A stretch of DNA of 64,000 nucleotides from Shigella phage B2: the sequence record OM858838; one strand, written 5' to 3'. Shown here one piece after another: positions 1 through 45,270 of this stretch. A model generated the notes under the pieces. That model was not told the DNA's origin. It did no database searches and saw only the letters and a program-made list of their open reading frames with translations. How positions within the stretch are numbered: position 1 is the stretch's first letter; every line of letters starts with the position of its first letter. Both the position numbers and the translations under genes were made by a program.

Positions 1-2
1 TA

Positions 3-1438: not shown

Positions 1439-1683
1439 TGGATATCGCATTTGTAGTATCAAAAGTAATTGTTACAGAGTACACACTGCTTAGGCAGTGG
1501 TGGCCTGAACAGTTACGCGAGTCTAGATATGTCGATACAGATATGACTAGAACCTACTTCTTAGATAGACTTCCCTCTCCTGAATTGTATGAGCTTATGG
1601 ATAGGCTTAATGCAGAAGGAAGAACCTATCGATTTATGGACTTAAGAGGAGTGGACTCAGAAGATGCGTCACATAATCTTTGA
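1438..1683 (+). CDS. hypothetical protein
   Basis: 81-aa ORF in tightly packed + strand operon. Confidence 0.4.
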   Translation: MDIAFVVSKVIVTEYTLLRQWWPEQLRESRYVDTDMTRTYFLDRLPSPELYELMDRLNAEGRTYRFMDLRGVDSEDASHNL

Positions 1684-6105: not shown

Positions 6106-6115
6106 GGATTAACTT

Positions 6116-6745: not shown

Positions 6746-6747
6746 TT

Positions 6748-7734
6748 ATGAAGCTAACCAATAATACTAACATCGCTTTATCGATGGCTGTCTGGTTAGC
6801 GGCTGATGATTATGACTACGTTGAGAAACCAAACTATATCTCTGCCACCAGCTTACTTAAGAGCGTTCGTCAATTAGTCTTGATGAAGCGTCTCACAGGC
6901 TCTCTGGAGGCTTCTGCTGATGTATCTGGACGAATCTCTAACCGTATGGGTTCAGCCTTCCACGATGCGATTGAGAGAGCTTGGAAGGAGAAATACAAAC
7001 AGTCCTTAACTGACCTTGGTTATCCAAAAAGAGTCATTGAAGCTGTGCGTATTAATCCAACAGAGGAAGAACTCAATGATGATGTGATTCCTGTCTGGTT
7101 AGAACAGAGAGTTGAGAAGGATTTCCGAGGATGGACTATCGGAGGTAAGTTCGACATGGTTATGGAGTACAGACTGAGAGATGTTAAATCTACCAGTGTG
7201 TTCACATACCAGAACAAATCCAATGATGAAAAGTTTCGTATGCAGGGAAGTATTTACCGTTGGCTTAACCCAGAGAAAATCAAGCATGACCACATGTACA
7301 TTGATTATCTCTTCGTAGATTGGTCTGCCAATCAAGCCAAAGGTAATAAAGATTACCCTCAACAGAAGATTTTAGAATATCCATTGCAGTTGAAATCTGT
7401 GCATGAAACGGAGCAGTATGTTGCCTCCAAGCTAACTGCTTTGGAAAGGTACATGGATACCCCTGAACCAGAACTTCCTGAGTGTACAGAAGAAGACTTA
7501 TGGCGCTCTGACCCTGTCTATAAGTATTACAAAAACCCTGCCTCTACAGGCCGTAGTACAAAGAACTTTGATAACTTACACGATGCTAATCTGAGGTTTG
7601 CTGAAGATGGTGCAGTAGGTATTGTTGTCACTGTTCCGGGTGAAGTTAAAGCGTGTAAATACTGTCCAGTATTTGCTATCTGTACTCAGAAAGATAAGTA
7701 TTTGGCTTCAGGGGAACTTAACGTTTCAGATTGA
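6748..7734 (+). CDS. PD-(D/E)XK-family nuclease with C-terminal Cys cluster (Cas4/RecB-like)
   Basis: FDMVMEYRLRDVKST (D...D-x-K) plus C-terminal Cys pattern CTEED...ACKYC...AIC. Confidence 0.45.
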   Translation: MKLTNNTNIALSMAVWLAADDYDYVEKPNYISATSLLKSVRQLVLMKRLTGSLEASADVSGRISNRMGSAFHDAIERAWKEKYKQSLTDLGYPKRVIEAVRINPTEEELNDDVIPVWLEQRVEKDFRGWTIGGKFDMVMEYRLRDVKSTSVFTYQNKSNDEKFRMQGSIYRWLNPEKIKHDHMYIDYLFVDWSANQAKGNKDYPQQKILEYPLQLKSVHETEQYVASKLTALERYMDTPEPELPECTEEDLWRSDPVYKYYKNPASTGRSTKNFDNLHDANLRFAEDGAVGIVVTVPGEVKACKYCPVFAICTQKDKYLASGELNVSD

Positions 7735-9905
7735 GGAACCCAATGTTTGACTTATCATCTGCCCAATATCATCCAATCTCTGAACAGATTGTAGATGTGT
7801 TAACAAAGAAAACTCTAAACAGTAACCGATTGTTCTTCAGAGTTCAGGTTAGTTACTTTTTAGCTAAGATGGCATCCAGTATGAGATGTACTCTGGATAC
7901 CTTAGATAGAGGAAAGATTCCTGTTAATGTATATGCCTTGAACTTAGCTCCGTCAGGCTCAGGCAAAGGGCATTCCACTAACATCATTGAAGGCCAGTTC
8001 TTGAACCAGTTTAAGAACACATTCCTTCAAGATACTTTCCCCTATATAGCTCAACAGAATCTTGTTGATATAGCTGCTAAAAGAGCCAATAAAAATGGAA
8101 CAGACCCTGCTGATGAGTTAGTGAAACTGGAGAAGGAATTTGCTTCTACAGGTGCATTAGCATTCTCATTTGATAGTGGTACTGTGCCTGCTCTCAAGCA
8201 GTTACGTCACAAGCTGTTACTGGCTAATGCAGGTGCTGCATCCTTCGAGTGTGATGAGTTAGGTAAGAACCTTATCGCTAACATGGACTTGTTAACAGCT
8301 TTTTTAGAGTTGTATGACCAAGGACTTATCAAACAGAAGTTAACCAAGAATACAGCAGACTCCCAACGTGCTGAGGAATTGGAGGGTAAAACTCCAACCA
8401 ATATGCTCCTGTTTGGTACTCCAAGTAGTTTGCTGAATGGCGGTAAGGAAGAAGACGAATTCTATGCATTACTGGAAACAGGATATGCTAGACGTTGTTT
8501 GTTTGGTTATTCTCGTAAAGAGGATTTCCAACAAGAAATGTCTCCAGAACAAGTCTTCGATATGCTGACTGACTCTACATCCAACTCAACCATTGCTCAG
8601 TTATCCCAGCACTTTGGTATGTTGGCTGATGCCATAAAGTACAATCAGCAAATCATGGTTAACAGGGATGTGAGTATCAAACTCATTGCCTACAAACTCC
8701 ATTGTGAACAGATAGCTGACAAGCTGCCTGACCATGAGGAGATTCGTAAAGCTGAATTACGTCATAGATATTTCAAAGCACTGAAGCTTGCAGGTGTGTA
8801 TGCATTTGTGGATGAAACTCCTGAAGTAACTGAAGCCCAGCTTTTATCTGCAATCAAACTCGTAGAAGAGTCTGGTGAAGCATTCAATAGAATTCTCAGC
8901 CGTGAGAAGAACTATGTGAAGTTAGCCAATTATATTGCAGAAGTAGGTAAGGAAGTTACCCACGTAGATTTGGTAGAGGATTTACCATTCTATAAAGGTA
9001 GCAATGCGCAGAAGCAAGAGCTAATGAACTTAGCTATCGCATATGGCTACAAGCACCACATCATCATCAAGAAAACATTTGTTGATGGCATTGAGTTCTT
9101 TAAGGGTGAGGCTCTTAAGCCAACAGACTTAAGTAAACTCATTGCTTCTTATAGTGGGCATGTAGCTTATAACTATCTCTCTGAACCAATCTCCTTTAGT
9201 AATCTTCAGGCTTTATGCCAGATGGATGATATGCATTGGATTAATCATGCATTGATTAAAGGTGCTGATGGAGATGGGCATAGAGATGGTTCAAACATTC
9301 TGCCGGGCTTTAACGTTATCGTCATCGATGTAGATGAAGGAACATCATTAGATGAAGTTAGAGTATTGATGAAAGATTATACATATTTCATTCATACAAC
9401 TAAACGTCATCAAACAGAAGGATATGGCGATAGATTCAGGCTTATCATGCCTATCAATTATCATCTTAAACTTGATGAAAATGAATTCAGAGAGTTTATG
9501 AATAACGTCTATGAATGGCTTCCATTTAAAGTCGATGAACAAACTAGTCAACGTTGTCGTAAGTGGGCAACACATCAAGGAATCACATTCTCCAATGAAG
9601 GAGAGATTCTAGATGCTTTAGCTTTCATTCCGAAAACAAGTAAGAATGATGAGTTGAAGAAGACTATGGTTGATTTAGGTAATTTAGATAATCTTGAACG
9701 TTGGTTTGCTCAGCGAATGGGTAACGGAAATCGCAACAATCAACTGCTGAAATTTGCTATGATGTTGGCAGATACTGGATTGGATTATCAAGGAATCTTG
9801 GATAAGGTTCTTGGCTTCAATGCCAAACTGGATAGCGGACTTCCAGAGATTGAAATTCACAGTACTATCATGCGCAGCGTTAGCAAGAAACTTTCCGAGA
9901 AGTAA
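7731..9905 (+). CDS. putative replication protein, primase-like
   Basis: 724-aa ORF; VIVIDVDEG resembles primase-polymerase motif I; position in replication module. Confidence 0.35.
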   Translation: MRNPMFDLSSAQYHPISEQIVDVLTKKTLNSNRLFFRVQVSYFLAKMASSMRCTLDTLDRGKIPVNVYALNLAPSGSGKGHSTNIIEGQFLNQFKNTFLQDTFPYIAQQNLVDIAAKRANKNGTDPADELVKLEKEFASTGALAFSFDSGTVPALKQLRHKLLLANAGAASFECDELGKNLIANMDLLTAFLELYDQGLIKQKLTKNTADSQRAEELEGKTPTNMLLFGTPSSLLNGGKEEDEFYALLETGYARRCLFGYSRKEDFQQEMSPEQVFDMLTDSTSNSTIAQLSQHFGMLADAIKYNQQIMVNRDVSIKLIAYKLHCEQIADKLPDHEEIRKAELRHRYFKALKLAGVYAFVDETPEVTEAQLLSAIKLVEESGEAFNRILSREKNYVKLANYIAEVGKEVTHVDLVEDLPFYKGSNAQKQELMNLAIAYGYKHHIIIKKTFVDGIEFFKGEALKPTDLSKLIASYSGHVAYNYLSEPISFSNLQALCQMDDMHWINHALIKGADGDGHRDGSNILPGFNVIVIDVDEGTSLDEVRVLMKDYTYFIHTTKRHQTEGYGDRFRLIMPINYHLKLDENEFREFMNNVYEWLPFKVDEQTSQRCRKWATHQGITFSNEGEILDALAFIPKTSKNDELKKTMVDLGNLDNLERWFAQRMGNGNRNNQLLKFAMMLADTGLDYQGILDKVLGFNAKLDSGLPEIEIHSTIMRSVSKKLSEK

Positions 9906-9925
9906 TCCCCAAGCAGGAGATAAAA

Positions 9926-10653
9926 TGTCAGAACCAATTAAAGACCTAGTCTTAATTGCAGGTGCATCATCATCTGGTAAATCAGCTTCATTGATGAATC
10001 TGGAAGACCATCCGGGAGTGATGTATCTAAACTGTGAATCTGGTAAACGTCTGCCATTTCCAAACAAGTTTGATAAGTATGTAATCACTGACCCACTACA
10101 AGTGTATGAAGCATTTGATGCTGCTGAGACTATGCCTCACATTCATACCATTGTAGTTGATTCAATTACATTCCTGATGGATATGTTTGAATCCCTTTAT
10201 GTTATTGGTTCAGCCAATACCATGAAAGGTTGGGCTGATTACAATCAGTTCTTTAAGAATCTGATGCAGGTTAAGGTAGCCAAATCTACCAAACGAGTAA
10301 TCTTTACTGCTCATACTCTGTCTCAGTTAAATGAGAATGAGATGATTGTAGAAACCAAAGTTCCAGTGAAAGGTGCACTGAAGAACCAAGGTATTGAAGC
10401 TTACTTTACCTGTATTGTTTATGCCAAGAAGATGCAGCTTAAGCATCTGAAGCCTTATGAGAATGACCTATTGGTTATTACTCCAGAGGAAGAAATCCTT
10501 GGCTATAAGCATGTCTTCCAAACTTGTATCACCAAAGATACTGTCCATGAACGTATTCGTTCTCCACGCTTTATGTGGAAGATGAATGAAAGTTTCATCG
10601 ATAACGATGTAACTAAAGTACTTGGTCGTATCAAAGAATTTTACGAAGAATAA
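9926..10653 (+). CDS. P-loop ATPase (RecA-like; replication/recombination)
   Basis: Walker A GASSSGKS, Walker B IHTIVVDS; start set at ATG 9926 after AGGAG RBS (track start 9811 overlaps upstream gene). Confidence 0.45.
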
Positions 10654-10662
10654 GGAACAAAT

Positions 10663-11406
10663 ATGTCTCTGTTAAAAAATCTGGAAACTAAAGCTGGCAT
10701 CGAAGGTGAAAAGGATATTCTGGGCGGTGATGGTGCTCTTGAATCAGGTCTGTATGACCTGACTATCAAAGTAGCATACGTCACTACCTCTAGTGGTGGT
10801 GCATTAGCTTTGAATACCGTATTTGACTATAACGGTAAAGAAGTACGTCAGCAGTTCTGGATGACTTCTGGTACTGCCAAAGGTGGCAAGAACACCTATA
10901 TCGATAAGAGAACTGGTAAAGAACAGTATCTCCCAGGATTCCTGACAGCTAATAGCTTGGCTCTCCTGACTGTTGGTAAGGAAATTAGCCAACTGGAGTT
11001 GGAAGAGAAAACCATCAAACTGTATGACTTTGATGCCAAAGGTGAAGTACCTACTAAAGTACAGGTATTCACTGAACTGACTGGTCAAACAATCACTGCT
11101 GGTGTACAGAAACAGACTGTTGATAAGAACATTGATTCTGGTCAGGTAGATGGGCAAGGTCAGAAAATCTATGTCCCATCTGGGGAGACTCGTGATATTA
11201 ACGAAGTTGTTAAGTTCTTCCGTGCAGATGATGGTCTGACTGTTCCTGAAATTGAAGCTCAGGTAACTGAAGCTAAATTTAAAAATGATTGGGATGCCAA
11301 GTATACTGGTAAAACCATCAATAAAGCCAAAGGCTCTAAAGATGGTGTAACAGCAGGTGCTCCATCAGCAGGAGCTAAACCTACTAAATCCCTGTTTGCT
11401 AAATAA
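10663..11406 (+). CDS. putative single-stranded DNA-binding protein
   Basis: 247-aa ORF at end of replication module, where N4-like phages place SSB; no motif proof. Confidence 0.3.
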   Translation: MSLLKNLETKAGIEGEKDILGGDGALESGLYDLTIKVAYVTTSSGGALALNTVFDYNGKEVRQQFWMTSGTAKGGKNTYIDKRTGKEQYLPGFLTANSLALLTVGKEISQLELEEKTIKLYDFDAKGEVPTKVQVFTELTGQTITAGVQKQTVDKNIDSGQVDGQGQKIYVPSGETRDINEVVKFFRADDGLTVPEIEAQVTEAKFKNDWDAKYTGKTINKAKGSKDGVTAGAPSAGAKPTKSLFAK

Positions 11407-11414
11407 GGATTTGT

Positions 11415-11660
11415 ATGGATTCTACAATTAGTTCAAATGACCATTTGCCTGTAATAATCATTAAGATTAAAGAGATTAAAACTTTCAAAGGTACATTTAC
11501 AATTATTCCTGAGAATGAAGAACAAACTGAGTTCGAAGTTCGTCCAGAATATATTGCTAAATTTGCACCGAAGGTTGGAGGCTACTATATAGTCTATGCA
11601 GGAGGGTACGAATCTTACTCAGAAGAAGACCCTACTCCACCTAAAGTTGAAATCCAATAA
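11415..11660 (+). CDS. hypothetical protein
   Basis: 81-aa ORF followed by terminator. Confidence 0.4.
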   Translation: MDSTISSNDHLPVIIIKIKEIKTFKGTFTIIPENEEQTEFEVRPEYIAKFAPKVGGYYIVYAGGYESYSEEDPTPPKVEIQ

Positions 11661-11665
11661 AAAAT

Positions 11666-11690
11666 AAGCCCTCATTAGAGGGCTTTTTTA
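11666..11690 (+). terminator. rho-independent terminator
   Basis: aagccctc-atta-gagggctt followed by T-run. Confidence 0.7.
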
Positions 11691-11703
11691 ATAGGTAAAT
11701 GGT

Positions 11704-11937
11704 ATGACAATCAAAGTAAGGATGTTCCAAAATGTTTCTGGTACAGCTTACCAGAAAGTGTCATATAAAATCATCCAAGGGATTGTAGAAAATCCACATG
11801 ACAAAGAGATTGATGTTCTTTTAACTGGATGGGAACATGCTTGTTCTAAATCATTAATGAGAACACAAATCTTACAGCAACTAGAATGGTTTAAGTCTCA
11901 GGGATACACTGTCATTTTTAATGACAAGAGACTATAA
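11704..11937 (+). CDS. hypothetical protein
   Basis: 77-aa ORF. Confidence 0.35.
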   Translation: MTIKVRMFQNVSGTAYQKVSYKIIQGIVENPHDKEIDVLLTGWEHACSKSLMRTQILQQLEWFKSQGYTVIFNDKRL

Positions 11938-11939
11938 CC

Positions 11940-12323
11940 ATGTACAAACTTATCGCTCCCCTCCGAGTACATAAATCCAAAGCCAAACTATTAAGTCTCA
12001 ATCTTAATGCTTATAGAAATGAGCATCATATGAGTCTTAATAATGCTAAGGCTAACTTTAAAAAGATTATGGAAGAACAGATTAGAGCACTACCTAAGTT
12101 CTCTAAGGTGCATCTTACCTATGTCTTTTATCCCGGAACCAAACATCTAAGTGATGTTGGTAATGCTTGTACCATAGTTGATAAGTTTTTTGCTGATGCT
12201 TTAGTCGAACTAGGGAAACTCCCAGATGACAATTATCTTTACATTCCTGAGTTGGTTTTTCGGATGGGGTCTATAGACCGCGAAAACCCTCGTGTAGAAA
12301 TCTTTATTAAGGAAATTGATTAG
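11940..12323 (+). CDS. hypothetical protein
   Basis: 127-aa ORF. Confidence 0.4.
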   Translation: MYKLIAPLRVHKSKAKLLSLNLNAYRNEHHMSLNNAKANFKKIMEEQIRALPKFSKVHLTYVFYPGTKHLSDVGNACTIVDKFFADALVELGKLPDDNYLYIPELVFRMGSIDRENPRVEIFIKEID

Positions 12324-12771
12324 TATGCAAATCACTCTGAACCAAGACGAAATCATGGAAGCCCTGAAAGATTATGCTTTCCGTGTAATCAATGTAGCTC
12401 CGGGCAATGATATCACTATCGACCTGAAAGCTGGTCGTGGTGAGAATGGCTATTCAGCCACTCTGGAAATCACTCCACAGCGTTTAACGGAATCACATGA
12501 CCCAAAGGGTCCTAATGTACGTGCAAGCTCCTCAGAAGGCTCTGTAGGCTTACGTACAGAAGTAATTGAACGTACAGTTGTTGAGCCAAGTAAGGGAATC
12601 CTGCGTGAGGTAGCTCCTGAACTTCCAGTTGAAGGTGAAACTGTAGTTGATACTGCTCCTACGGAGCCAGTGGACCCAGCAGCCCATCTGTCTGAAGAAC
12701 AGGTTGATGCTGAAGTTGATGAATTCTTAGCTATCCAGAATCCTACCAAATCACTCTTCGCACGTAACTGA
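12316..12771 (+). CDS. hypothetical protein (acidic C-terminus)
   Basis: 151-aa ORF. Confidence 0.4.
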   Translation: MISMQITLNQDEIMEALKDYAFRVINVAPGNDITIDLKAGRGENGYSATLEITPQRLTESHDPKGPNVRASSSEGSVGLRTEVIERTVVEPSKGILREVAPELPVEGETVVDTAPTEPVDPAAHLSEEQVDAEVDEFLAIQNPTKSLFARN

Positions 12772-12784
12772 TTAAGGAGCCAAG

Positions 12785-12931
12785 ATGAAAGCACTTAAAG
12801 CTGCTTTCATTACTGCTCTCATAGTAGGGGTCTTCTTTGCATGGCCCCTAGTATTAACAGTAGCTGTGATAGCAGGTATATTCTGGTTCATCTATATGGC
12901 TCTTAACCAAACAGAAGAGGAAGACGAGTAA
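12785..12931 (+). CDS. small membrane protein (48 aa)
   Basis: Strong RBS AAGGAG then ATG; hydrophobic MKALKAAFITALIVGVFFAWPLVL...; below the track's 60-aa cutoff. Confidence 0.4.
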   Translation: MKALKAAFITALIVGVFFAWPLVLTVAVIAGIFWFIYMALNQTEEEDE

Positions 12932-13158
12932 TGTATATCTGGCTTTTAATTGGCTTAGCTGTATCCATTTATGTAGTACATGGACCTAAGCTAGATAATG
13001 AAGAAGCAAAGAGAATCAGAAAGAATGTTAAATTAGCGTTCGAACGTGTGGCTCTATTCAGAGCTATTATGATTCCTGCATATATATTTTGGATGTGTGT
13101 GTTCTCTTTGATATGGCCTCTGATGATTTACATCAGATTCTTCTATAAAGATAAATAA
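12931..13158 (+). CDS. small membrane protein
   Basis: 75-aa hydrophobic ORF. Confidence 0.4.
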   Translation: MYIWLLIGLAVSIYVVHGPKLDNEEAKRIRKNVKLAFERVALFRAIMIPAYIFWMCVFSLIWPLMIYIRFFYKDK

Positions 13159-13162
13159 AATT

Positions 13163-13186
13163 AAGCCCCATCCTTGGGGCTTTTCT
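13163..13186. terminator. bidirectional terminator between convergent genes
   Basis: aagcccca-tcct-tggggctt with T-rich flanks on both strands, between + strand operon end and vRNAP stop. Confidence 0.6.
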
Positions 13187-13187
13187 T

Positions 13188-16100
13188 TTAGTACAAACTC
13201 ACCAGAGGGTGTACTGTAAGTCCATTCAATGCTGTACCCATCCCAACGTTATAACTCAGACTACCAGTTACTAAGTTGGCTTCAGTAATGTTAGGTAATC
13301 CAGATTCAACACTGTTACCAAACATCAGGAACAATGCTCTCAATGGATTCTCTCTAATCGTTCTCAGAATGATTTTCTGGATACGAATCTTATAGTTCAG
13401 GAACCAAGTTAAACCAATAGCATCCAGATAGAATCTGGTACGACTTGGTAACACATCATAGTTCACGAACTCATCCATCACTCTGTTAAGCGCACTGTCT
13501 TTATCCATTGGATTACTCTTACGAGTAGTCAAATGTTTATACAATGAATACTTAGCAACAAAGTCACCATACTGGATTGAACGGTTCAGTAAGAAGTACA
13601 CGTTACTATCTCTTGAAAGGGTAACTTCCTTAGCAACACGTTTAACACTATCTGGAATACCAGATGTGTATTCATCCATCTTATTAAGTAATTTATCTTT
13701 CAATGAATAGTTATCTTGCTGTCCTAAATCCTCTGCAATGGTAGGCAGTAAACCTGCTTTGATTAAATCAGCAACAGGGTTACGAGCCTGAGAATCTTTC
13801 AGTTCTGAAATCTTTCTCTGATATTCGTCAGCCATTTTAGGATTATGGTTTACAGCCAGATAGTGAGAATACTCGTTAATCAGTTTCTCATTCTTTCTGT
13901 ACTCCTCAGCAGCCAGTACAGCAGTAGACATATCCTTAGCCATAGTCACAGGGCTTACACCAACAGTAGCTAAGTGAACCATGTTAGAAACAATGTTCGC
14001 TGCTGATACAACTATTGAACGAACTACAATCCAATCCTTCATTTCCTTCACGAATTCCATCAGACCACGTTCACCAAGTCTCAGATAGCGAGCAGCATTC
14101 TTACCTAAGAAGGTTTCAGCAATGCTGGTGAAAGCTTTCTGGAACTCTTTAGAGTAACCAGTCTGACCAGTCCACATATTCAGTACAGAAGGTTCACGAT
14201 AACCAAATGCGTTATTCAGTAAATCCTTACGTACTTTAATCTTACCATCAGGCCAAATCTTCTTAGCTTGTTCCTTCATCTCAATAGGCATCAGTTCATA
14301 AATCTCTTTTAACTGATGGTCTGTAGAGTTCTCATCCATAGTAATGTATTGGTATGCCCTGCCTTCTCTGGCATCCTTCACATACATTTCATGGAGTCTC
14401 TGGAGCAACATTTCATTGTATCTGGCTGCCTGAATCTCCTCAGCAATACGACCTTCCCAAGCACCGATTACCTTAGTGAAATCATTATCTACATCCAAAT
14501 GTGCTTCTTTGTTAGCTCTAGGCATCTGATATGAGTAACCCATAATTGAACCAGCACGATTCAATACAGGTTGCATATATGAGTTATTGCCAGTAGGCAT
14601 AGGAGCATTTGCATCAAATAAATTATCAATACTGCTTCTCTTACGAGTAGATAAATTATTCTTCTCAGTAGCTCTCCATATACCCGGAGTCATAGCACCA
14701 TTCACAGTTCTACCTGTAATTGGGTTTACTCCACCTACGGTGTTTTGCAGGGTACTCATTACACCAGCAATCCAACGAGGTTCACCACCATTGTTTGAAT
14801 GGTAGTAATACATTGGTTCCTTGTTGGTATCCTGTGGGTCACGAGCAACCTGAGCACCTCTGGTATACCCTCTACGAGATAAGCTTGGTTCATCTTTAAT
14901 AGATGCAATAATCACTTTCTTGTTAGGGTCTGACAGAGTAGGAGTAAATCCTTTAATCCCAGCTAGTGCTTGGTTTTGACCAGACTTAGCTAACTCTGCA
15001 CCCTGCAAGCTTGAATAATATTTGAGAGTGAAAGTCATCCCATTATTATTTGGTTCACCTTTAGTCATCTCTCTATTAATCAAATTACTTACAGTAGCAA
15101 TATCAGTCTGAGATAACTCTTTCAGTGCTGCCAGAGAAGCCATAGTATCAACCAATTGAGTAACAGTATTAACTGTTGCATCATTAGGTCTAACTCTGCC
15201 AGTACCAATTAAACGAGCAATAGCTGCTGCGTTAGGTAACTGATAAGCCAGTGGACTAACTCCATGAACCATTTGTTTAGCTAATCCATATGCAGACTTA
15301 ATATAGAAAGGAGCATTCTGTGCACCTGCTGTCTGCAATTGAGATTCAATAGAAGCAATCTCTTTAGCCAGTTCAGTTGGATTGGTTAAGAGTTCATTCA
15401 GTCGTGCCAAGTCATATCCATTGGCAAACAGATAAGCCATATCAGTATTAGCAACTACTCTCTGAATAGCTTCTTTCTCTGTTTGGTTCAGGGATACAAA
15501 TGTACTCTCAATCATACCCGGAACCATCTCACGAATAATCTGACGTGCTCTATCAGCAGCCATATTCTTCTGAGTCAGTAAGGTATGAATGGTGCTATTG
15601 GTTTCGTTAGAACCAATGAACTCATTAATCAGTTCAGCAACAGTACCTAACTTGCCATTCTGGTGAATGGTCATATAAATGTTAGTGATAGCATCACGTA
15701 CATCCTGAGCATCTTGGTCATTGAATACTGCTGAACCAGCAGTGATACCAAATGCTACAGACTTAGGTACTTTCTTCTCTACCTTGAGTAACTGTCTACG
15801 GATAGTGTGACCAAAGGATTTGAGTTTATCCTGAGTAGTATCAGTGATTTTCTCTGCACCTCTAACCAATCTACCAAACAGATTGTCTCTGGCTTCACTA
15901 TCAACATGACTAATATTCTTAGCCAGTTTAGTTAAGCGAGAAGCAACGTCAGTATTACCCAAAGACTTAGTAGCCAAACCCGATAACCAAGTAAGAATGG
16001 CATTGGTTAAATCACCAATACGTTCTCTCAGAGTTGTAGCTGGAGTCTGTCTGGTACGCTTAACACTAATCTGAGAAAGTTTATTTCTCAGTTGTTCATT

Positions 16101-19100
16101 GGTTTCTGCCAGTGCAATGAAGTTAGCCAGTCTATTAGTACGACCAGTAGCATCAGTAGTCACAGCAGTGTTACCAAATACAGCATCATATCTTTGTTTA
16201 GCTAATGCCATTTCACTAGCTGAACGATTATTAGGGTCAGTTAAGAAGTCTTCTACTTTCAAGGTATCTCTGGCTTGTGCATACAAACTACGTGCAACCA
16301 GAACACTTGGAGAAAAGTTCTCTAAACCATACTTCATAGAAACTTGCAGCATCTTGAATACAAATGCTTCTTTCTCACTCATGTTAAAACCATGAGCAAT
16401 CAATGCATTTGGAGAGTTATCAATCTCTGGGTCGATACTATCTACCAGAAGTTTTTCCTGATAATGGTCTAAACCAGAGATTTGCTGACCAGTATTCTTA
16501 ATCACTTTAATGATATTTGACTGGAGATAATCCAGTGTATCAGTCAAATGATTCACATGGTCTTGCGTAGCTTTACCAGCATCCAGTTTATTAAACAGAG
16601 TTTCTGCATCTAATCTATTGATGTTATTAGCATTGGTTTGAGCATAGCTAGTTTCATCATTAGATTTAACCGGATTAGTAGAGTCAGTTAAAGCAACTGT
16701 ATGCCCTAACAGACGTGACCAGTAAGAGGTAACATCTGGATTAGAGCCAATAGCAAACAGGCGCTTAATAGAATCAGCTAACTGTTTGAGTACATTGGTA
16801 ACAGTCCCAGCAATAGTCTTCTGAGTCATTGCATCAATCATTCTTGGGTTAACTAATCCCCATGCAATAAACTCAGCAGTAGCTTGAGACATATTACCAG
16901 AAGCGATATGAGTATTAATCAGGTCTACTACAGCATCAGTTTCTGGATTGGTGCTTGAATATTCATTCACAAACTTATTCATCAATCCTTCAATTGAAGC
17001 TACTTCTACTCTCTGAGCAGGAGTAATTGCTTCTGGATTGCTGTAATAGTTATGAACAGTATCAGCAGTAGCAGCATGAATTAACTCATGCATTACTGTC
17101 TCAATAGACTGAGAACCAATATAGATGTTCTGGCCTTGTGTAAGACCCAAGAACGTGTCATTAAACTCAACCTTAGTATCAGGTGTCATTTCCTGTTGAA
17201 CGCCTGAGAGAGCTTCTGGTGAGCCTACATACACATTAATATCATTAGGGATAGAATTGATAATCTTATCCAGAATGAAACCAGTGATTCTATTCTGGCG
17301 AGAAGGCAGAGATTTAGCTGCCTCTCTTACAGCAGCAACCACATCACCTTTAGCCAGAACTTTAACACCTTCATGACCTTTTACAGTTCTACCATTTCTA
17401 TCCAGAGCCTCAGTCATCTGACGAGTAGGAGGAATGGTTACTCTACCTTTAGGTAGAGATACAGAATCCATAGTAGGTAATTCAGTATTGGCTACTAACT
17501 GTTCCAGAGGAGTTCTGGTATCAGTTGCTTCTCCATCAGTCTGTTTACCATTCTTAACATTGAATGGAATATTGGCACCAGTCATCTGGTTAATGGAGGT
17601 AATAGCCTCACCACCTAACAGACCTTGTTTAATAGCAGTCTGAGTAGCAGCTTCTCTCTTAAGCAGAGTAGTGAATGCTTCAACCACTTCTGGACTAGTA
17701 GGTGCATTAGTTTCATCAGCACCAATCATTTCCATAATTCCACGGAAAGACTGTTCCAGACGAACATCTGCTTCTGGACCTAATTCCTCTGCCAGATTCA
17801 CTCCATCCATTGCTTGCTCAAAACGGTTAGTGAAATCTTGCAGTAAATCGAATTCATTCCAGCTTTGCAGAACACCTTGGTTAATAGCCTGAGAACCAGT
17901 ATCCAAATGAGATACAGCATTGATGTAGCCATCGAATACGTTCAGAGCATTGTTAGGATTGATATCACGAGCAATAGCCTGCATAGCTGCTTCTACAGAC
18001 TGAACCAGTAAAGGCATTACACGAGTACCCGGTTCAGTATAAGTAGGCATATCTACACCGAAGGTAGAACGACGCATCTTACCATCCAGTTCTCTACGTC
18101 CTCTGGATTCCATTCTGTGTACGTCAGATGGAACACGCCCTTCCTCACTCAGAAGAATACCTTCATTCAGCTTTTCAACATCTAAGTTGTTAGCAGTAAA
18201 CCAAGAATTGAAGATTGGCATTGAACCAATCAAGTAATTCTTAATGTCGTTGTACTGCTGCTGAGATAGAGATTCATATTTAGATAACTTACCTTCTTTA
18301 CGAAGTTCAGTTTCTAATCTCTCTACTTCTTTATTCCAACGAGACATGAATACTTCATGCATTACAGCAGCAGCATAGACCATCATCTTGCCACGATTAA
18401 CTACAGTACCAAATTCATTAGCAATGGATTCGTTTACTGCTGCACCAATACCAATCTTGATGTTCTGAGTAATAGCTTCGATTTGTTCACCGTCAAATTC
18501 AAACATAGTCACATCCTGACCTAAGTTGATAGGTGAACCAATCTGAACCCAAGAACCATTTCTGAATACCCGAGCAGTAGTCAGTTCATTAGTTGTATTA
18601 GTTAAGTCATTGATGTGTTCAATAGCAGCATCACGTTCTTCCTGATTAGTAGCTGCATCAACTGCTCTCAATGCTTCTGTGATTGCTTCGTAATATCCAT
18701 TAGCAATACCCATAGCAATCTTTCTATTGATTGCAGTAGCACCGCCTGAATAAACAGTTACTGTTACTGGATTCTTAAGTAAACCTCGACCAATCTGAAT
18801 TGGATGGTCTACATTTTCACCTTCAACAATATTCACATCACCAATCAGTTTGGATGCAGCAAGAGTAACCCTCATCTGATTCTTCAGACGTTCAATTTCA
18901 CGCATTTCTTTTTGCTGGAATTGACGTGGTTTATTCTTCATTGCAGCAATTCGGTTAGGAATATTTCTAACTGAATCCATCATTCTATTGATGTATTGCT
19001 GACTATCAGCAGCAGCAGTCTTATACAGGTCTAAGAATCCCGGTTCTTCAGCAGCATCATTATACAGACGGTCAGACTGCCCATAGAAGAAACCGCCCTT

Positions 19101-22100
19101 CTCCAATTTATTCAGTAAGTCCTGGTTCACATCTTTCAAACCAAGCTGAACAATGGAGTTAAATGGTCCATTAGTAACACCATCAAGCTCCAGCATTACA
19201 TGAGTCTGGAATGAGGTCTTACCTTGTTCTACAGCCAGTTCATATTGAGCCTGTGCATACAGAGCATGGAGAGTCTTAGTCTTCTCCTTACCTGCTTTAA
19301 CAGCCTGCAACAAAGTCTCAGCATCACTATCACTGATGGCATCCTGATTCTCAGCAGCTTTAAGGATATCGATAGCATCTCTGAACAGACCAGTACTGAT
19401 AGCTTTATTCAGTCTATCTCTGGCTGTTTCAGAAGACAGCTTATCAACAGCAATATCTAAGCCCTGAGCAATTGCATAATCAAGGAATGCACCATGCTGA
19501 GGGTTATTCAGTTCAATGGTAGATGGTTCAACAGTAACCAGTTCACGATGTAATTTAGCTGACTGAGGATTCAGGTCACCAGAGTTAAGCATCATACGGA
19601 AGTTACTGATTACGTTATAACCAAAGTAAACAGGAGTGGTAGCCAAAGGTAATCCAGCTTCAACCATTCTAGTTAAACCATTAACCAGAGTATTTATATC
19701 TCTTTCAATGGTACGGTTAGAACCCTGAATAGATTTCAGGTGAGCACCGTTAGTATTCTCTTCTGACTGAATGCCTAACATTCTACCAATCCACTGAGTA
19801 CCTAACTTATCAAGCATCAGGTCATGCAGACCCATGTTAATGAAGTGAGGTTGTTTGCTAGCTTTGTTACGAGCAGCAAGCATCTTCTCAGGGATATCCT
19901 GACCACCACCATTCTTAACTTTAGTGCTTTGACCTTTTGGTGGAGTACCAAAGTATGCACCTGCTCTTTCTCTCTGAGGATTAGTCAGTTGACCTAACAG
20001 GTCATTAGAATTCTGCATCAATTCTACTAAACGAGTAGCAGCAGGAGACTCTTCATTCATACGAATGAATACACGAGAGTTCTTCATGTTTGAGTCATTT
20101 ACTTTAGTAGAACCAACAGCAGCTAATTCAGAGTTTTTAACAACTGATTCCTGAACCAGATTAGCATTAATCATTACGTTCAATACTTCAGATGCCATTG
20201 CTTTAGACACAGCATCACGTACAGAGATAGGTGCATTAGGGTCTGCATTGATACCTAATACTCCAAAGATTTCTCTGCTTAAATCATCAATAACATTCTG
20301 ACGGTCAGTACCAACGTTACGCAGTAAGTCAGTCTGTTCTACAGTTGGCCTAGTCTTGTTATCTAAACCAAGAATATCCATTACTGTACGGTCATCATTG
20401 AATGTAGTTTCAGATGCATTACGTACAAACCACTGCATCATTCCAGCAGTCATTGCTTCAATTACTGGCTGCGGTAAGAAGTAAACATTCTCACCATTGA
20501 TGTTTCTAACTTCATCAAAGTACTCAACAGGATAAGTTTCCCAGAAGATACGCTGACCTTCAGGAGTTAATTTACCCCAAGACTGAATCAGAGATTGTTC
20601 AATAGCAGGGACTAAACCAGCAAACTGACGAAGTACATTTACTTCTTTCTCAGTTACTTGTTCTGGTTTGATATAACCTTTAAACAGATTCTGAATCTGA
20701 GTAATAGGATTAGAACCATTAGTAAAGATGCTATTAAGTCTCCCAGAGAAATTAGAAGTTCTCAGGAAAGCTGAACGTTTACCGGTAGGTTTAAACCATT
20801 TCTTAACTTGGTTTGTAGCTTGATATTCTTTATCTACATCAGAAGTAGACTTAGCATCAGAGCGTATTGTCTCTGCTTGCAGTCCATTCAGAATGTCATA
20901 GTTAACACCTTTCTCTGAACCAAGGTCTAATTGAGACTCATCCATCAGGTCAGTTTCTACATCAGTAGGTTTTTCCTGTAACTGGATATCAGATTCTACA
21001 GTATCTGGTTTCTCAAACAGTTCACCCTGTACAGGTTCAGTACGTACAGCTTCCTCAGACGCTACTGGCTGAGTTATTTCAGGCTGTACTGGTGTTTGTA
21101 CCTCTTCCTGAGAAGTCTGCTCAGAAGTCTCTACAGGAGCTTCTACAGTAGTCTGCTGAGATACAGGTTGAGGGAAAGTATTCCTGACGTGGTTCAGGAA
21201 ATCAGTACGTGCCTGAGAAGGTGTAGCCCATACTTCACGAGTACTACGTAAACTGAAGATATGCCCATCTGGTGTCATAACGTAAGGTACATTAGTGTCA
21301 CCATAATTAAAGGAAGACAGAACATCCTGTTTACCAGTAACTGTGTCCTCTCCAGGAATAATAGTAGTTTTACCACCATTAACCGGAACGGCACGAATAC
21401 CCCCCATGTCTTTACCAATAGCAATATAGTCTTTGCCATTATAGGTAAAGTACTGACCTAACTGCATATACAGTGCCTGCTGCTGTCCAGTAAATTCAGC
21501 AGATTTCATCTCAGGACCGGCAGGGATACCACTAGAAGTAGTCTGCTGAGGAGCTGGTTTAGTTTCTTTTTTAACAGGTGCAGATTCCTGAGTCTGGTTG
21601 TTCACTTCTTCAGAAGCAACAGGAGCAGACTGTGCAGGGATATCTACAGGTTTACCATCTACCAGTTGACTGGTAAGGGTATGAGCCAGTCTTACTGCAT
21701 CAGCATCATTACGAATCTCTTGGATTAATCCTTTAGAACGTACCGGATGGTACGTCATTGGATTTCCATCGAGAGACAGGTATGGCTGACCAGTAGTAGG
21801 ATTAATTACTTCTACAGGTTGATTTCCAGTAAAGTTCTGAGCAGCTTGGTCAAAGGCAGCAGCCTTAGTTTCCATATGTTCAGCAAAGCGATTCAGGTGG
21901 TCTAACAGACCCTGAGCACGAGCAGTATCACCTAATGATAATGCACGGAAGATACCTTGCTGATATTGCTGGATACCAATAAAGCCATCCGAACCTTCAC
22001 GTACATCTTTACCTACTTGGCTCATAGCCTTACCAGTAGCAGAGATGACCTTAAGTTTATCCACATCCTGCTGACTTAAACCAAGAGTATCAGCAGAGTT

Positions 22101-24413
22101 AACTAAACGGTCAGCTACATCTGGAGTAATAGAAGATGCATCTAAGTTCATCTGAGCCAGAACAGATTTAACATTCTTCTGAACTTCAGGAGATTTGTAA
22201 GTCTCTGGAGTAATCTCAGAAGGTAATGATTCCATGACTTTAGTCATTTCATCAGGAGTCAGTTTAAATCCTTCAGCAGTAGTCTTAACTGCCTGTACAT
22301 CAGGATGATTCAGTACAGCATTAATATTATCAATAGCAGTCTGATACTGAGCTTTCTGGTCTTCTGGAGCAGCATCCATCTGTGCCTGAATCTGAGGTAA
22401 TGCTTCTTCATATGCAGAGATAACACTGTTACCAACAGTAGCTAAATCTCTACGAGAAGCTTCATCTAGATTACGTTCTTTAATGGCACGAGAGATTCTC
22501 AGAATAGAATCAGGAGAACTGATTTCTTCTTCTGGAATAGCTTTGAATACTTCTTTGGCAGCAGGTTCAGTAACAGCATCTACAGCTTTAGTAGTTACAG
22601 TTGGTTCTACTGGCGCTTCAGTATTAGTTTGTGGGGCAGCTTGTTTAACTGATTCATTGGCAGCAGATACAGTATTTCTAAAGTCTTGTGCTCTGCTTTC
22701 AGTTCTACGAGTCTGTCTTGCATCAAATGCTGTACGACCTTGTTGAACTCCTTCTTGGATTGCTCTAGGTGTCTCACTGATAGCTGAACCAACAGCACCC
22801 ATACCCGCACCAGCAATAGCAGATTCAGCAACGTTTGAACCAATACCCTCAATGAGGGATTGAGATTCGTCAGCAGAGCTACGTACCCCGAGATTAGAAG
22901 CGAACTGACCAGAAGCGCCCTGTAATGCTTCCTCAACAGTCTCTTTAGCAGCATTCTGTGAAACCCTTGAAGATGCAGCCAGTAATCCTTTACCTTCCAG
23001 TAAAGATGGAGTTAACAGACGTGATTCAAAGGGAGCAGCAACCTTACCAGTTAATGCACCTAAAGTACCTGCCACAGCAGAAGTAACATTACCTGCTTGA
23101 GTACGTACCTGACTTCTAGCCTGAGATGGTGTAGCACCTTCAGCAATAAGGTCACGATACATTGGTGATTTTTCAGCTAACTGAGCATCAGTTAATTTAT
23201 CAATCTCATCCAGTGACTGTTGAGCATTTGAACCAGCTTCTTGGAAACCAACGTAACCAATAAATGCTCTTTCAGCAGCATCCTGTAGACGCTTTCTACC
23301 AAACTCAGTAGCAGCTAATTTAGTAGCAAAGTCCTCACCATACTCTTGAGCCAATTGCTTCAAAGCACCACGAGTAGCTAACTTACCTACGATACCACCA
23401 GTCAGTAAGTCTGGAGCAGATTCAGCAATCAGAGTAGTTAATGCACCTGGTGAAGTACCATACTGTTCAGCAGTATTAACGAACTGACGTAACTGTTCCT
23501 TAGCACCAGCTACTAATGGATTATCACCTTTAGCAATATCAGCAGCTTCTCTTGCTGCACCGCCTTGTTCAAAGCGTTGCTTATTGGCTTCGATAACAGA
23601 TTGTTCATATTGAACAGCAGGAGAATACTGAGAACGCTGTTCATCAACGAATTCTTTTAATGGCTTATCAATACCTGCTTGGTCTAACAGAGTAGGTTGC
23701 CCTACTTGGTCTTCTTGACCAGTAACATTAGCAATTAAATCCTGAGCATTCTGTAATGCTAAGTTACCTAAACTAGTAGCAAATCTTGCAGTATTACCTG
23801 CCCATACTTGGGCAGCATTACCAATGTCTGAAAGTTCCATAGGAGCATTTTCAAACTGGTCTGTATTAGCTTGAGCAATATTTAATGCAAGTTTGTCTCT
23901 AGCCGCTTGAGGACCATACTTCTGCTGTAAAGCAGAGATAGGCATATCTTTTAAATCAGCAAGATATTGGTCATTTGGATTAGTCTGTGCAGCTTGATTA
24001 GGAGCTACATAGTTAGGATGACTTGGGTCAAAAGGACCAGTACCACCAAATTCAGGAGATACTTGAGGATTAATCATCCTACGATAGAAAGGCTTAGTTG
24101 CTGCAATAGCATCATAGTTAGCCTGCATATCAGGAGTGGTTGGTTGAGTCTCAGGAATATTAAAATTATTAATATTCTGACCAGTCAACATTGCCTGCAT
24201 CTGTTCACGAGTATATTTAGGACCAGATTCAGCCAGACGAATAGCTTCCTGTCCTCTCTGATATTCAGGAGAACCTACAGGGAAATCTGTTTCTACTCCG
24301 GGTACTGGAGCACCCATCTCTACTTGTTTCTGCTGAGTGGCTTGATTTAGTTGTTGTGTTTTTTGTAAATCAACTCCAGCTAATTGTTGTTCTTTTTCAA
24401 ATCCGGTAGCCAT
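13188..24413 (-). CDS. virion RNA polymerase (N4 gp50-like vRNAP)
   Basis: 3741-aa ORF, the N4-like hallmark; T7-like motif B candidate IGRGLLKNPVTVTVYSGG; RBS GAGGA before start. Confidence 0.8.
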   Translation of the reverse strand: MATGFEKEQQLAGVDLQKTQQLNQATQQKQVEMGAPVPGVETDFPVGSPEYQRGQEAIRLAESGPKYTREQMQAMLTGQNINNFNIPETQPTTPDMQANYDAIAATKPFYRRMINPQVSPEFGGTGPFDPSHPNYVAPNQAAQTNPNDQYLADLKDMPISALQQKYGPQAARDKLALNIAQANTDQFENAPMELSDIGNAAQVWAGNTARFATSLGNLALQNAQDLIANVTGQEDQVGQPTLLDQAGIDKPLKEFVDEQRSQYSPAVQYEQSVIEANKQRFEQGGAAREAADIAKGDNPLVAGAKEQLRQFVNTAEQYGTSPGALTTLIAESAPDLLTGGIVGKLATRGALKQLAQEYGEDFATKLAATEFGRKRLQDAAERAFIGYVGFQEAGSNAQQSLDEIDKLTDAQLAEKSPMYRDLIAEGATPSQARSQVRTQAGNVTSAVAGTLGALTGKVAAPFESRLLTPSLLEGKGLLAASSRVSQNAAKETVEEALQGASGQFASNLGVRSSADESQSLIEGIGSNVAESAIAGAGMGAVGSAISETPRAIQEGVQQGRTAFDARQTRRTESRAQDFRNTVSAANESVKQAAPQTNTEAPVEPTVTTKAVDAVTEPAAKEVFKAIPEEEISSPDSILRISRAIKERNLDEASRRDLATVGNSVISAYEEALPQIQAQMDAAPEDQKAQYQTAIDNINAVLNHPDVQAVKTTAEGFKLTPDEMTKVMESLPSEITPETYKSPEVQKNVKSVLAQMNLDASSITPDVADRLVNSADTLGLSQQDVDKLKVISATGKAMSQVGKDVREGSDGFIGIQQYQQGIFRALSLGDTARAQGLLDHLNRFAEHMETKAAAFDQAAQNFTGNQPVEVINPTTGQPYLSLDGNPMTYHPVRSKGLIQEIRNDADAVRLAHTLTSQLVDGKPVDIPAQSAPVASEEVNNQTQESAPVKKETKPAPQQTTSSGIPAGPEMKSAEFTGQQQALYMQLGQYFTYNGKDYIAIGKDMGGIRAVPVNGGKTTIIPGEDTVTGKQDVLSSFNYGDTNVPYVMTPDGHIFSLRSTREVWATPSQARTDFLNHVRNTFPQPVSQQTTVEAPVETSEQTSQEEVQTPVQPEITQPVASEEAVRTEPVQGELFEKPDTVESDIQLQEKPTDVETDLMDESQLDLGSEKGVNYDILNGLQAETIRSDAKSTSDVDKEYQATNQVKKWFKPTGKRSAFLRTSNFSGRLNSIFTNGSNPITQIQNLFKGYIKPEQVTEKEVNVLRQFAGLVPAIEQSLIQSWGKLTPEGQRIFWETYPVEYFDEVRNINGENVYFLPQPVIEAMTAGMMQWFVRNASETTFNDDRTVMDILGLDNKTRPTVEQTDLLRNVGTDRQNVIDDLSREIFGVLGINADPNAPISVRDAVSKAMASEVLNVMINANLVQESVVKNSELAAVGSTKVNDSNMKNSRVFIRMNEESPAATRLVELMQNSNDLLGQLTNPQRERAGAYFGTPPKGQSTKVKNGGGQDIPEKMLAARNKASKQPHFINMGLHDLMLDKLGTQWIGRMLGIQSEENTNGAHLKSIQGSNRTIERDINTLVNGLTRMVEAGLPLATTPVYFGYNVISNFRMMLNSGDLNPQSAKLHRELVTVEPSTIELNNPQHGAFLDYAIAQGLDIAVDKLSSETARDRLNKAISTGLFRDAIDILKAAENQDAISDSDAETLLQAVKAGKEKTKTLHALYAQAQYELAVEQGKTSFQTHVMLELDGVTNGPFNSIVQLGLKDVNQDLLNKLEKGGFFYGQSDRLYNDAAEEPGFLDLYKTAAADSQQYINRMMDSVRNIPNRIAAMKNKPRQFQQKEMREIERLKNQMRVTLAASKLIGDVNIVEGENVDHPIQIGRGLLKNPVTVTVYSGGATAINRKIAMGIANGYYEAITEALRAVDAATNQEERDAAIEHINDLTNTTNELTTARVFRNGSWVQIGSPINLGQDVTMFEFDGEQIEAITQNIKIGIGAAVNESIANEFGTVVNRGKMMVYAAAVMHEVFMSRWNKEVERLETELRKEGKLSKYESLSQQQYNDIKNYLIGSMPIFNSWFTANNLDVEKLNEGILLSEEGRVPSDVHRMESRGRRELDGKMRRSTFGVDMPTYTEPGTRVMPLLVQSVEAAMQAIARDINPNNALNVFDGYINAVSHLDTGSQAINQGVLQSWNEFDLLQDFTNRFEQAMDGVNLAEELGPEADVRLEQSFRGIMEMIGADETNAPTSPEVVEAFTTLLKREAATQTAIKQGLLGGEAITSINQMTGANIPFNVKNGKQTDGEATDTRTPLEQLVANTELPTMDSVSLPKGRVTIPPTRQMTEALDRNGRTVKGHEGVKVLAKGDVVAAVREAAKSLPSRQNRITGFILDKIINSIPNDINVYVGSPEALSGVQQEMTPDTKVEFNDTFLGLTQGQNIYIGSQSIETVMHELIHAATADTVHNYYSNPEAITPAQRVEVASIEGLMNKFVNEYSSTNPETDAVVDLINTHIASGNMSQATAEFIAWGLVNPRMIDAMTQKTIAGTVTNVLKQLADSIKRLFAIGSNPDVTSYWSRLLGHTVALTDSTNPVKSNDETSYAQTNANNINRLDAETLFNKLDAGKATQDHVNHLTDTLDYLQSNIIKVIKNTGQQISGLDHYQEKLLVDSIDPEIDNSPNALIAHGFNMSEKEAFVFKMLQVSMKYGLENFSPSVLVARSLYAQARDTLKVEDFLTDPNNRSASEMALAKQRYDAVFGNTAVTTDATGRTNRLANFIALAETNEQLRNKLSQISVKRTRQTPATTLRERIGDLTNAILTWLSGLATKSLGNTDVASRLTKLAKNISHVDSEARDNLFGRLVRGAEKITDTTQDKLKSFGHTIRRQLLKVEKKVPKSVAFGITAGSAVFNDQDAQDVRDAITNIYMTIHQNGKLGTVAELINEFIGSNETNSTIHTLLTQKNMAADRARQIIREMVPGMIESTFVSLNQTEKEAIQRVVANTDMAYLFANGYDLARLNELLTNPTELAKEIASIESQLQTAGAQNAPFYIKSAYGLAKQMVHGVSPLAYQLPNAAAIARLIGTGRVRPNDATVNTVTQLVDTMASLAALKELSQTDIATVSNLINREMTKGEPNNNGMTFTLKYYSSLQGAELAKSGQNQALAGIKGFTPTLSDPNKKVIIASIKDEPSLSRRGYTRGAQVARDPQDTNKEPMYYYHSNNGGEPRWIAGVMSTLQNTVGGVNPITGRTVNGAMTPGIWRATEKNNLSTRKRSSIDNLFDANAPMPTGNNSYMQPVLNRAGSIMGYSYQMPRANKEAHLDVDNDFTKVIGAWEGRIAEEIQAARYNEMLLQRLHEMYVKDAREGRAYQYITMDENSTDHQLKEIYELMPIEMKEQAKKIWPDGKIKVRKDLLNNAFGYREPSVLNMWTGQTGYSKEFQKAFTSIAETFLGKNAARYLRLGERGLMEFVKEMKDWIVVRSIVVSAANIVSNMVHLATVGVSPVTMAKDMSTAVLAAEEYRKNEKLINEYSHYLAVNHNPKMADEYQRKISELKDSQARNPVADLIKAGLLPTIAEDLGQQDNYSLKDKLLNKMDEYTSGIPDSVKRVAKEVTLSRDSNVYFLLNRSIQYGDFVAKYSLYKHLTTRKSNPMDKDSALNRVMDEFVNYDVLPSRTRFYLDAIGLTWFLNYKIRIQKIILRTIRENPLRALFLMFGNSVESGLPNITEANLVTGSLSYNVGMGTALNGLTVHPLVSLY

Positions 24414-24488
24414 TAGGAATCCTCAGAAGGGAAATAACTGATATGAAGTGTACTAAAAGAAATCCCTCACTAGGAGGGATTTTGTCAT

Positions 24489-45178: not shown

Positions 45179-45185
45179 CCAATTA

Positions 45186-45260: not shown

Positions 45261-45270
45261 CCAAATAATG

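Follow-up and report, generated by a model that had tools for sequence, protein, structure and literature searches.

Why is the virion RNA polymerase (vRNAP) encoded in a 64,000-nucleotide (nt) stretch of DNA from Shigella phage B2 (sequence record OM858838; the whole stretch is hereafter the window) longer than its counterpart gp50 of phage N4, and what does the extra length hold? The ORF listing gives the gene as a single open reading frame (ORF) of 11.2 kb on the minus strand, at 13188..24413, which starts with ATG and encodes 3741 amino acids (aa) plus the stop, the 3741-codon translation being free of internal stops. In DNA of 40% G+C, the frequency of stop codons implies that so many open codons did not arise by chance. 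A preliminary description of this DNA had given the coordinates and the length exactly, without stating the strand, and had proposed that the protein, being longer than N4 vRNAP, may carry an extra domain. Based on the evidence set out below, we hold with high confidence that the best explanation is an intact vRNAP of an Ithacavirus with an additional module, which we call domain A, that is under selection, has been exchanged between phages and sits in the tether linking the N-terminal domain (NTD) to the polymerase, the tether probably acting as a slot for exchangeable modules.

The window protein exceeds N4 gp50 (3500 aa) by 241 aa. Alignment with N4 gp50, named in the preliminary description as the way to find the extra residues, traced them mostly to one place. 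Using the domain boundaries of N4 from a 2026 cryo-EM paper (PMC13434306), the excess is +20 in the NTD (N4 1-906), +171 in the tether (N4 907-1006), +28 in the RNA polymerase (RNAP) domain (N4 1007-2101), -16 in the RNAP-CTD link plus subdomain C1 of the C-terminal domain (CTD; N4 2102-2375) and +38 in subdomain C2 (N4 2376-3500). N4 residues 907-1006 form a flexible, low-complexity tether of 100 residues (PMC13434306), which in the 2026 structural papers, including PMC13434306, accounts for the NTD not being seen by cryo-EM and holds the polymerase, once refolded, at the membrane. The corresponding tether of the window protein (aa ~927-1194; 20832..21635, minus strand) is likewise of low complexity and rich in P, E, T, Q and V, but it has domain A inside it, whereas that of N4 is a bare segment without domain A. 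Total length by itself is not exceptional, since 3741 aa falls within the range of 2842-3820 aa of reference vRNAPs (Zheng et al. 2023, PMC10654107).

More is learned from the 3595-aa proteins of sister phages than from N4. The vRNAP gene is 98.7% nucleotide-identical to that of Salmonella phage vB_SenP_UTK0001 and 96-98% identical to those of FSL SP-076, SP-058, S5, SP154 and As2, with 97% for SP-076 and SP-058; across these Ithacavirus sisters and UTK0002 the range is 96-99%. In all nine sequenced sister phages the vRNAP is 3595 aa long and lacks one discrete insertion of 145 residues (aa ~946-1090) present in the window protein, where it makes up 145 of the 171 extra residues of the tether, so that the proposed extra domain has a definite counterpart in the sequence. 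When two of them, UTK0001 and SP-076, were translated, identity per 100-residue block was 97-100% outside aa ~915-1165 (99-100% in most blocks), and within residues ~915-1165 the window protein had 146 residues more. DNA alignment with the same two phages resolved the difference in the tether into one 435-nt (145-codon) insertion at 21151..21585 on the minus strand, with which a blastn gap at 21161-21585 agrees, and a one-codon indel. The insertion is surrounded by a patch of ~790 nt (20914..21702, minus strand) with 78-82% nucleotide identity to the sisters, whereas the rest of the gene is mostly 99-100% identical and never less than 95%. The flanks within this patch are linker of the Humphriesvirinae type, nearer to coliphage Pollock and Klebsiella phage Pylas than to Ithacavirus. 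Diverged flanks around the insert suggest that the patch came in by homologous recombination, its donor being diverged and already in possession of the insert; given the type of the flanks, this donor was probably an as yet unsampled member of Humphriesvirinae.

The conserved core of domain A comprises aa 966-1083 (21165..21518, minus strand) and is 76% identical to aa 971-1088 of gp50 of coliphage G7C (vB_EcoP_G7C; Gamaleyavirus, Enquatrovirinae). G7C was the sole other carrier found in a tblastn search of 50,697 phage records (E<=1), which matched aa 966-1088 of its gp50 at 74% identity. The G7C copy lies at the equivalent position of the tether in a protein of 3748 aa. Outside domain A, the vRNAPs of the window and G7C are 25-30% identical, and identities of 74-76% within the module against 25-30% elsewhere suggest that it passed from one lineage to another and did not diverge along with the proteins around it. 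Across the 118-codon core the two copies have 76% nucleotide identity, with dN=0.14 and dS=1.2 (nonsynonymous and synonymous divergence, respectively) and thus dN/dS=0.12. A ratio this low at such a dS points to long-standing purifying selection and to a transfer that was either not recent or not direct; judged by its codon substitutions, the core is under strong purifying selection as a protein domain. Scans for further copies gave none beyond G7C. In IMG/VR none was found with the single protein and an alignment of the window and G7C copies retrieved G7C itself only; none was found in GTDB (one genome per species); and none was found in JGI metagenomes using peptide patterns and a degenerate DNA pattern for YVMTP[DE]GxIFSLR. 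A homologous-protein search with domain A, and also with aa 780-1350, gave no match in an index that seemingly holds no giant vRNAPs.

Might the extra length, then, be no real domain at all, but an assembly chimera or an expansion of the low-complexity linker? Linkers within the vRNAP family do vary by tens of residues and no other record of the window sequence exists: a search for contigs encoding exactly this 3741-aa protein gave none. Yet the insert is in frame and rich in aromatic and hydrophobic residues and glycine, unlike the P/E/T/Q/V-rich linker around it; its flanks are Humphriesvirinae-type linker; and at 76% nucleotide identity to its sole relative it does not derive from co-assembled G7C reads. 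We consider an artefact of this kind hardly credible.

Both copies of domain A are bracketed by short direct repeats. In the window, an exact 14-nt repeat, CTCAGCAGACTACT, encoding (P/S)QQTT, occurs upstream at 21537..21550 and downstream at 21147..21160 (both minus strand), with the copies 390 nt (130 codons) apart and in frame. No other repeat of 12 nt or more occurs within this 800-nt stretch; when the codons of the flanks were shuffled, 5 of 500 shuffles gave a repeat this long. The repeat on either side of domain A in G7C is another one, CCTAAGTCTGAAA, 13 nt long; its copies (11986-11998 and 12400-12412 of the G7C locus, L004) are 414 nt apart, again in frame (3/500 shuffles), and are preceded by a second repeat of 10 nt. 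The empty site of UTK0001 holds one similar copy, matching at 11 of 13 positions. Among the other tether inserts described below, one (locus L035) has a repeat as rare (4/500) yet out of frame, that of Pylas is borderline (13/500) and the rest are unremarkable, so that an in-frame repeat that stands out (~1% of shuffles) is confined to the two copies of domain A. The arrangement is suggestive of insertion at short homology or of in-frame deletion between repeats, and in-frame repeats would offer a simple route of gain and loss, fitting the patchy distribution of domain A.

Bracketing repeats and a distribution restricted to two phages in different subfamilies could also be expected of a selfish or degenerate mobile element, such as a mini-intein or the remnant of a homing cassette, of no benefit to the phage, and homing elements do seem to be active in this lineage, as an HNH ORF splits the DNA polymerase gene of the same genome. 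However, searches of the insert against Pfam and PHROG gave no match to Hint, intein, LAGLIDADG, HNH or GIY-YIG models at E<=1, and its boundaries, as read from the sequences, lack the residues of intein junctions (C/S/T...HN-C/S/T). We therefore rejected an intein or homing cassette for the insert for want of both motifs and junction residues. Moreover, each copy keeps the reading frame and lies inside linker sequence, and a dN/dS of 0.12 at a dS of 1.2 indicates long-term selection on the protein. A selfish origin thus seems very improbable to us, and we return to domain A as a selected module.

Considering that the module occupies the same position in two distant vRNAPs, the tethers of related proteins are instructive. 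We gathered vRNAP genes by two scans of IMG/VR and read the NTD-to-polymerase region of 44 distinct proteins, classifying the tethers by reading the sequences, as an automatic detector of aromatic-free runs was too noisy. Most of the 44 have a low-complexity tether of 90-230 residues and nothing else, among them N4, the Humphriesvirinae other than the window and Pylas (Ithacavirus relatives, Pollock, Klebsiella phage KpCHEMY26) and a large number of metagenomic relatives. In about a dozen, the tether contains a folded insert, and these inserts are of at least seven unrelated kinds. The first is domain A (window and G7C; tblastn, phmmer). Domain B is a second insert in the tether of G7C gp50 (aa ~1136-1265), absent from the window protein, which recurs in several Gamaleyavirus-like contigs and in a distant metagenomic locus, L063 (phmmer E=5e-14). 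The third is a DprA-like/SLOG domain in Pylas (phrog_768, E=8e-14), the fourth a cpYpsA SLOG domain in L064 (PF12694, E=8e-12) and the fifth an ADP-ribosyltransferase of the ART-PolyVal type in L045 (PF18760, E=2.5e-7, above cut-off). The remaining two are a GNAT-like stretch in L035 and possibly L038, with a match below cut-off, and a domain of ~190 residues in the tether of L056 to which no family name could be given. In the IMG/VR loci L045, L064, L035, L056 and L038 the insert lies just upstream of the N-terminus of the polymerase. Within Humphriesvirinae, tblastn spans indicated inserts in the window and Pylas only. The Pylas vRNAP (Pylasvirus; 3819 aa) belongs to the same subfamily as the window protein, its gene being 82.6% nucleotide-identical, and its insert of ~215 residues is at the same tether position; the insert itself, to which Pfam SLOG matches are weak, is unrelated to domain A.

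Domain B has a scattered distribution of its own. It lies at 12481-12930 of the G7C locus and occurs also in L016-L020, L027 and L063; it is present in several Gamaleyavirus-like genomes and absent from IME11-like genomes and from N4, and distant L063 has it (E=5e-14) while its close relatives L047 and L066 do not. In G7C, domain B gave no Pfam or PHROG match.

The protein into which domain A is set shows the sequence marks of an intact polymerase. A phmmer search of all PDB chains matched full-length N4 vRNAP (3500 residues) at E=9e-185, with query residues 214-714 aligned to N4 114-601 and 1306-3739 to N4 1138-3497, and matched the crystallised N4 mini-vRNAP at E=4e-47. PHROG 2206 "virion RNA polymerase" (phrog_2206) covers residues 123-3740 at E=0, and three vRNAP-specific Pfam domains, N4_RNAP_helical, vRNAP_dom_2 and vRNAP_dom (PF21894, PF21867, PF21769), all score above their gathering thresholds; the plug module PF21624 was undetected here by Pfam, though it is present in G7C. 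When the protein is aligned with its counterparts from N4, G7C and Pylas, the catalytic residues are seen to be conserved as R1606 (T/DxxGR), D1744 (motif A), R1876, K1880 and Y1888 (motif B) and D2161 (motif C). They align with N4 R1421, D1556, R1663, K1667, Y1675 and D1948, which we take to be the catalytic residue numbers of Kazmierczak et al. 2002.

The five-part layout of N4 gp50 (PDB 9PNQ/9PNR/11GP; mini-vRNAP 2PO4/3C2P) can be followed throughout, even though the two proteins are merely 27-33% identical per domain. Apart from the tether, alignment, homology, Pfam matches and conserved residues delimit an NTD at aa 1-~926 (21636..24413), matching N4 residues 1-906; the single-subunit RNAP domain at aa ~1198-2320 (17454..20822); CTD subdomain C1 at aa ~2340-2578 (16680..17396); and the helical subdomain C2 at aa ~2579-3741 (13191..16679), all on the minus strand. 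Within C1, and hence C-terminal to the polymerase, a zincin-like HExxH motif is retained as HELIH at aa 2442-2446 (17076-17090, minus strand), aligned with HELVH at 2228 of N4, for which the motif is described in PMC13434306 and PMC5512222. In N4, the NTD is a membrane-associating ejection domain (PMC13434306) and C2 autoinhibits the polymerase (2026 N4 cryo-EM papers, including PMC13434306). On these comparisons, the ORF encodes a complete, apparently functional vRNAP of an Ithacavirus (Schitoviridae) with the layout of N4 gp50. The identification of an N4-type vRNAP in the preliminary description is thus borne out by N4 gp50 homology over NTD, polymerase and CTD as well as by the profile matches and catalytic residues, and its N4-like taxonomic call is sound, the nearest genomes being those of Ithacavirus (Schitoviridae).

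What domain A might do can be approached through the N4 model. According to work on N4, the capsid contains a few copies of vRNAP, which leave through the tail before the DNA does, passing a ~35 Å channel like a loose string of beads; the NTD associates with the inner membrane, and the polymerase, still tethered, folds again once in the cytoplasm and there transcribes the early genes. The tether would be a slot in which accessory modules can be exchanged and in which they reach the cell ready-made, as part of the polymerase. Domain A, of 13 kDa, would travel as an extra bead and end in the cytoplasm beside the point of DNA entry, present before any phage gene is expressed. As a putative small, beta-rich binder, it may work there within minutes of the start of infection, either against a defence or to recruit a host factor, and the flanking repeats would permit its in-frame loss and gain. 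A five-stranded SH3-like small beta-barrel (KOW/Tudor/SH3) was considered as a candidate for its fold. Its location and timing would suit a counter-defence or host-capture function, and domain A would be dispensable for polymerase function because the sister phages do without it. For domain A itself we regard such a role as a possibility worth pursuing, somewhat short of an even chance.

The same position leaves room for a purely mechanical role, in which domain A is a structural bead that tunes the length or geometry of the tether or binds a virion or ejection protein, for example a gp51-like protein or the portal. The module does lie, on the N4 model, in the tether that joins the membrane-bound NTD to the polymerase, the N4 NTD has been proposed to contact gp51 (PMC13434306), domain A has no enzymatic motifs or family match, and purifying selection is equally compatible with such a role. 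On the other hand, nine sisters with near-identical vRNAP and ejection proteins manage without it, it has moved between vRNAPs that are 25-30% identical and have different partner proteins, and the same site elsewhere holds enzymes of the host-directed type (ART, SLOG, GNAT-like). Taken together, we consider a structural bead unlikely.

Add-on domains in vRNAPs have a precedent in the literature. N4-like vRNAPs were classed as polyvalent proteins (Iyer, Burroughs, Anand, de Souza, Aravind 2017, PMC5512222), giant proteins that enter together with the invading DNA and join a zincin-like peptidase module to variable effector domains; fusions to ART, lysozyme and PBECR RNase domains were noted there in some vRNAPs, and release of the domains by the peptidase was proposed. 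The window protein would be a candidate polyvalent protein: it has an HExxH module and a variable extra domain, domain A, which is a putative effector, and recognised effector domains, ART-PolyVal and SLOG, sit in the tethers of related vRNAPs. Domain A differs in having no match in Pfam-A, a library that holds the ART-PolyVal model of polyvalent proteins. The wider proposal that the Schitoviridae tether is a dedicated recombinational cargo slot, delivering pre-made ART, SLOG, GNAT-like and orphan effectors to the place where the DNA enters, ahead of phage gene expression, with domain A as a new family of such effectors, a small beta-rich binder that would neutralise a defence or capture a host factor in Salmonella and E. 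coli, is put forward tentatively.

Several points weigh against our reading of the tether as a slot holding a selected, exchanged module. The function of domain A is not indicated by any significant family match in Pfam, PHROGs or NCBIfam, and it has no sequence match in the PDB. Further, an exhaustive HMMER search of 1.84 billion representative proteins gave no match at E<=0.001, but as the cluster members that stand for giant vRNAPs in that set may lack the insert, this negative mainly excludes stand-alone homologues. A Pfam match of domain A to Ape1_N (E=0.065) was rejected as noise. The bracketing repeats are modestly unusual (about 1% of shuffles), lying as they do in linker DNA that is itself quasi-repetitive. 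The direction of change, gain in the window versus loss in the sisters, is inferred from the diverged flanks of the patch. Our survey of tethers is biased to vRNAPs that keep the exact motif DGVTNGPxN, and its proportions are not those of the whole family. Finally, packaging, ejection and early transcription by the vRNAP are presumed for this phage by carrying over what is described for N4. Matches to a hairpin pattern of N4-type promoters (GAAGCNNNGCTTC) were at chance level only and are uninformative in either direction.

A Shine-Dalgarno-like GAGGA, read from the sequence, lies at 24420..24424 (minus strand), 7-11 nt upstream of the ATG. Right after the stop codon, a putative bidirectional intrinsic terminator at 13163..13182, acting on both strands, forms a GC-rich hairpin of eight pairs with T-runs on both strands; this terminator-like hairpin stands between convergent gene blocks and separates the converging replication-gene block from the vRNAP gene. 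The sign of both GC and AT skew flips at the start of the minus-strand gene block. The 199 nt at 12959-13157, adjoining the hairpin, are unmatched in UTK0001. Upstream of the vRNAP gene, a 154-aa ORF matches N4 gp52 (E=1.5e-15), a 775-aa ORF matches N4 gp53 (E=6e-50) and a 474-aa ORF gives a weak match to N4 gp51 (E=1.4e-4); the gp52 and gp53 homologues adjoin the vRNAP gene, as in the ejection-protein arrangement of N4. The gene order around the vRNAP is the same in UTK0001, SP-076 and Pylas. According to their records, UTK0001 and FSL SP-076 are classified in Ithacavirus (Humphriesvirinae, Schitoviridae), and at a greater distance the vRNAP gene is 81-84% nucleotide-identical to those of Klebsiella phages Pylas, MY01 and KpCHEMY26 and of coliphage Pollock.

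Short ORFs within the gene, set aside as spurious in the preliminary description, are found on the plus strand at 16099-16395, 22483-22746 and 23967-24350, and at 22607-22954 on the minus strand in a frame other than that of the vRNAP. Each is intact in close relatives only and is broken by 1-3 stop codons in two or more of four more diverged relatives, Pylas, KpCHEMY26, Pollock and metagenomic L011, and none is annotated in the records of UTK0001, SP-076 or Pylas. Judged by these comparisons, the nested ORFs are by-products of the long ORF, in agreement with that description.

Elsewhere, the window shares its genome organisation with UTK0001 and is colinear with it yet circularly permuted, with 1-50161 corresponding to UTK 21044-71346 and 50334-64000 to UTK 1-14015, which places the ends of the deposited linear genome inside the window (50162-50333). 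Four further regions differ. At 1664-4967, the gene for a family A DNA polymerase is split into ORFs of 551 aa and 314 aa, the break falling at position 126/127 of the Pfam DNA_pol_A profile. Between the halves lies a 211-aa ORF (3321-3956, TTG start) with an HNH_3 domain (E=1.4e-10); the polymerase gene of UTK0001 is uninterrupted and a 710-nt segment (3316-4025) is missing there, so that the HNH ORF looks like the insertion of a free-standing homing endonuclease. The ThyX region (5341-6105; Thy1 E=6e-36) has no blastn match to the ThyX segment of UTK0001 between flanks that are 98-99% identical and, on this alignment, is a second replaced patch. The tRNA cluster at 45107-46341 holds 7 genes (Asp, Ile, Ser-UGA, Asn, Arg, Thr, Leu), against 10 annotated in UTK0001 (Asp, Pro, Tyr, Ser, Gln, Met, Ile, Asn, Arg, Leu), and this region is rearranged and about 92% identical. 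Lastly, part of the early genes (51848-54235) has 84% identity to UTK0001 with unmatched gaps, whereas the rest of the genome is 97-99% identical.

The polymerase itself was already known, as the expected hallmark of a known genus; the extra domain is a new architectural variant. Since add-on domains in vRNAPs are reported in PMC5512222, the general idea is already published. The word "linker" is absent from the searched text of that paper, however, and the tether as a site of insertion appears undescribed in it. What appears to be new is the localisation of the add-on modules to one tether, the recognition of domain A as an orphan module that two subfamilies share, of which the original G7C genome paper may have remarked the G7C insertion, and the presence of domain A in an Ithacavirus.

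It is for the tether of N4-like vRNAPs that these observations are of most use. In the 2026 N4 papers it is taken as a featureless string of 100 residues, whereas in the window, G7C, Pylas and several metagenomic relatives it is a site of interchangeable folded modules, some of them recognisable as host-modifying enzymes. This makes the tether a concrete place in which to seek proteins at work within seconds of the start of infection, when phage transcription has yet to begin. A tractable pair for testing what domain A does is formed by near-isogenic Salmonella phages that have it or lack it and whose polymerases are mostly 99-100% identical elsewhere. If domain A does serve counter-defence or host capture, it would represent a new family of such proteins without detectable relatives.

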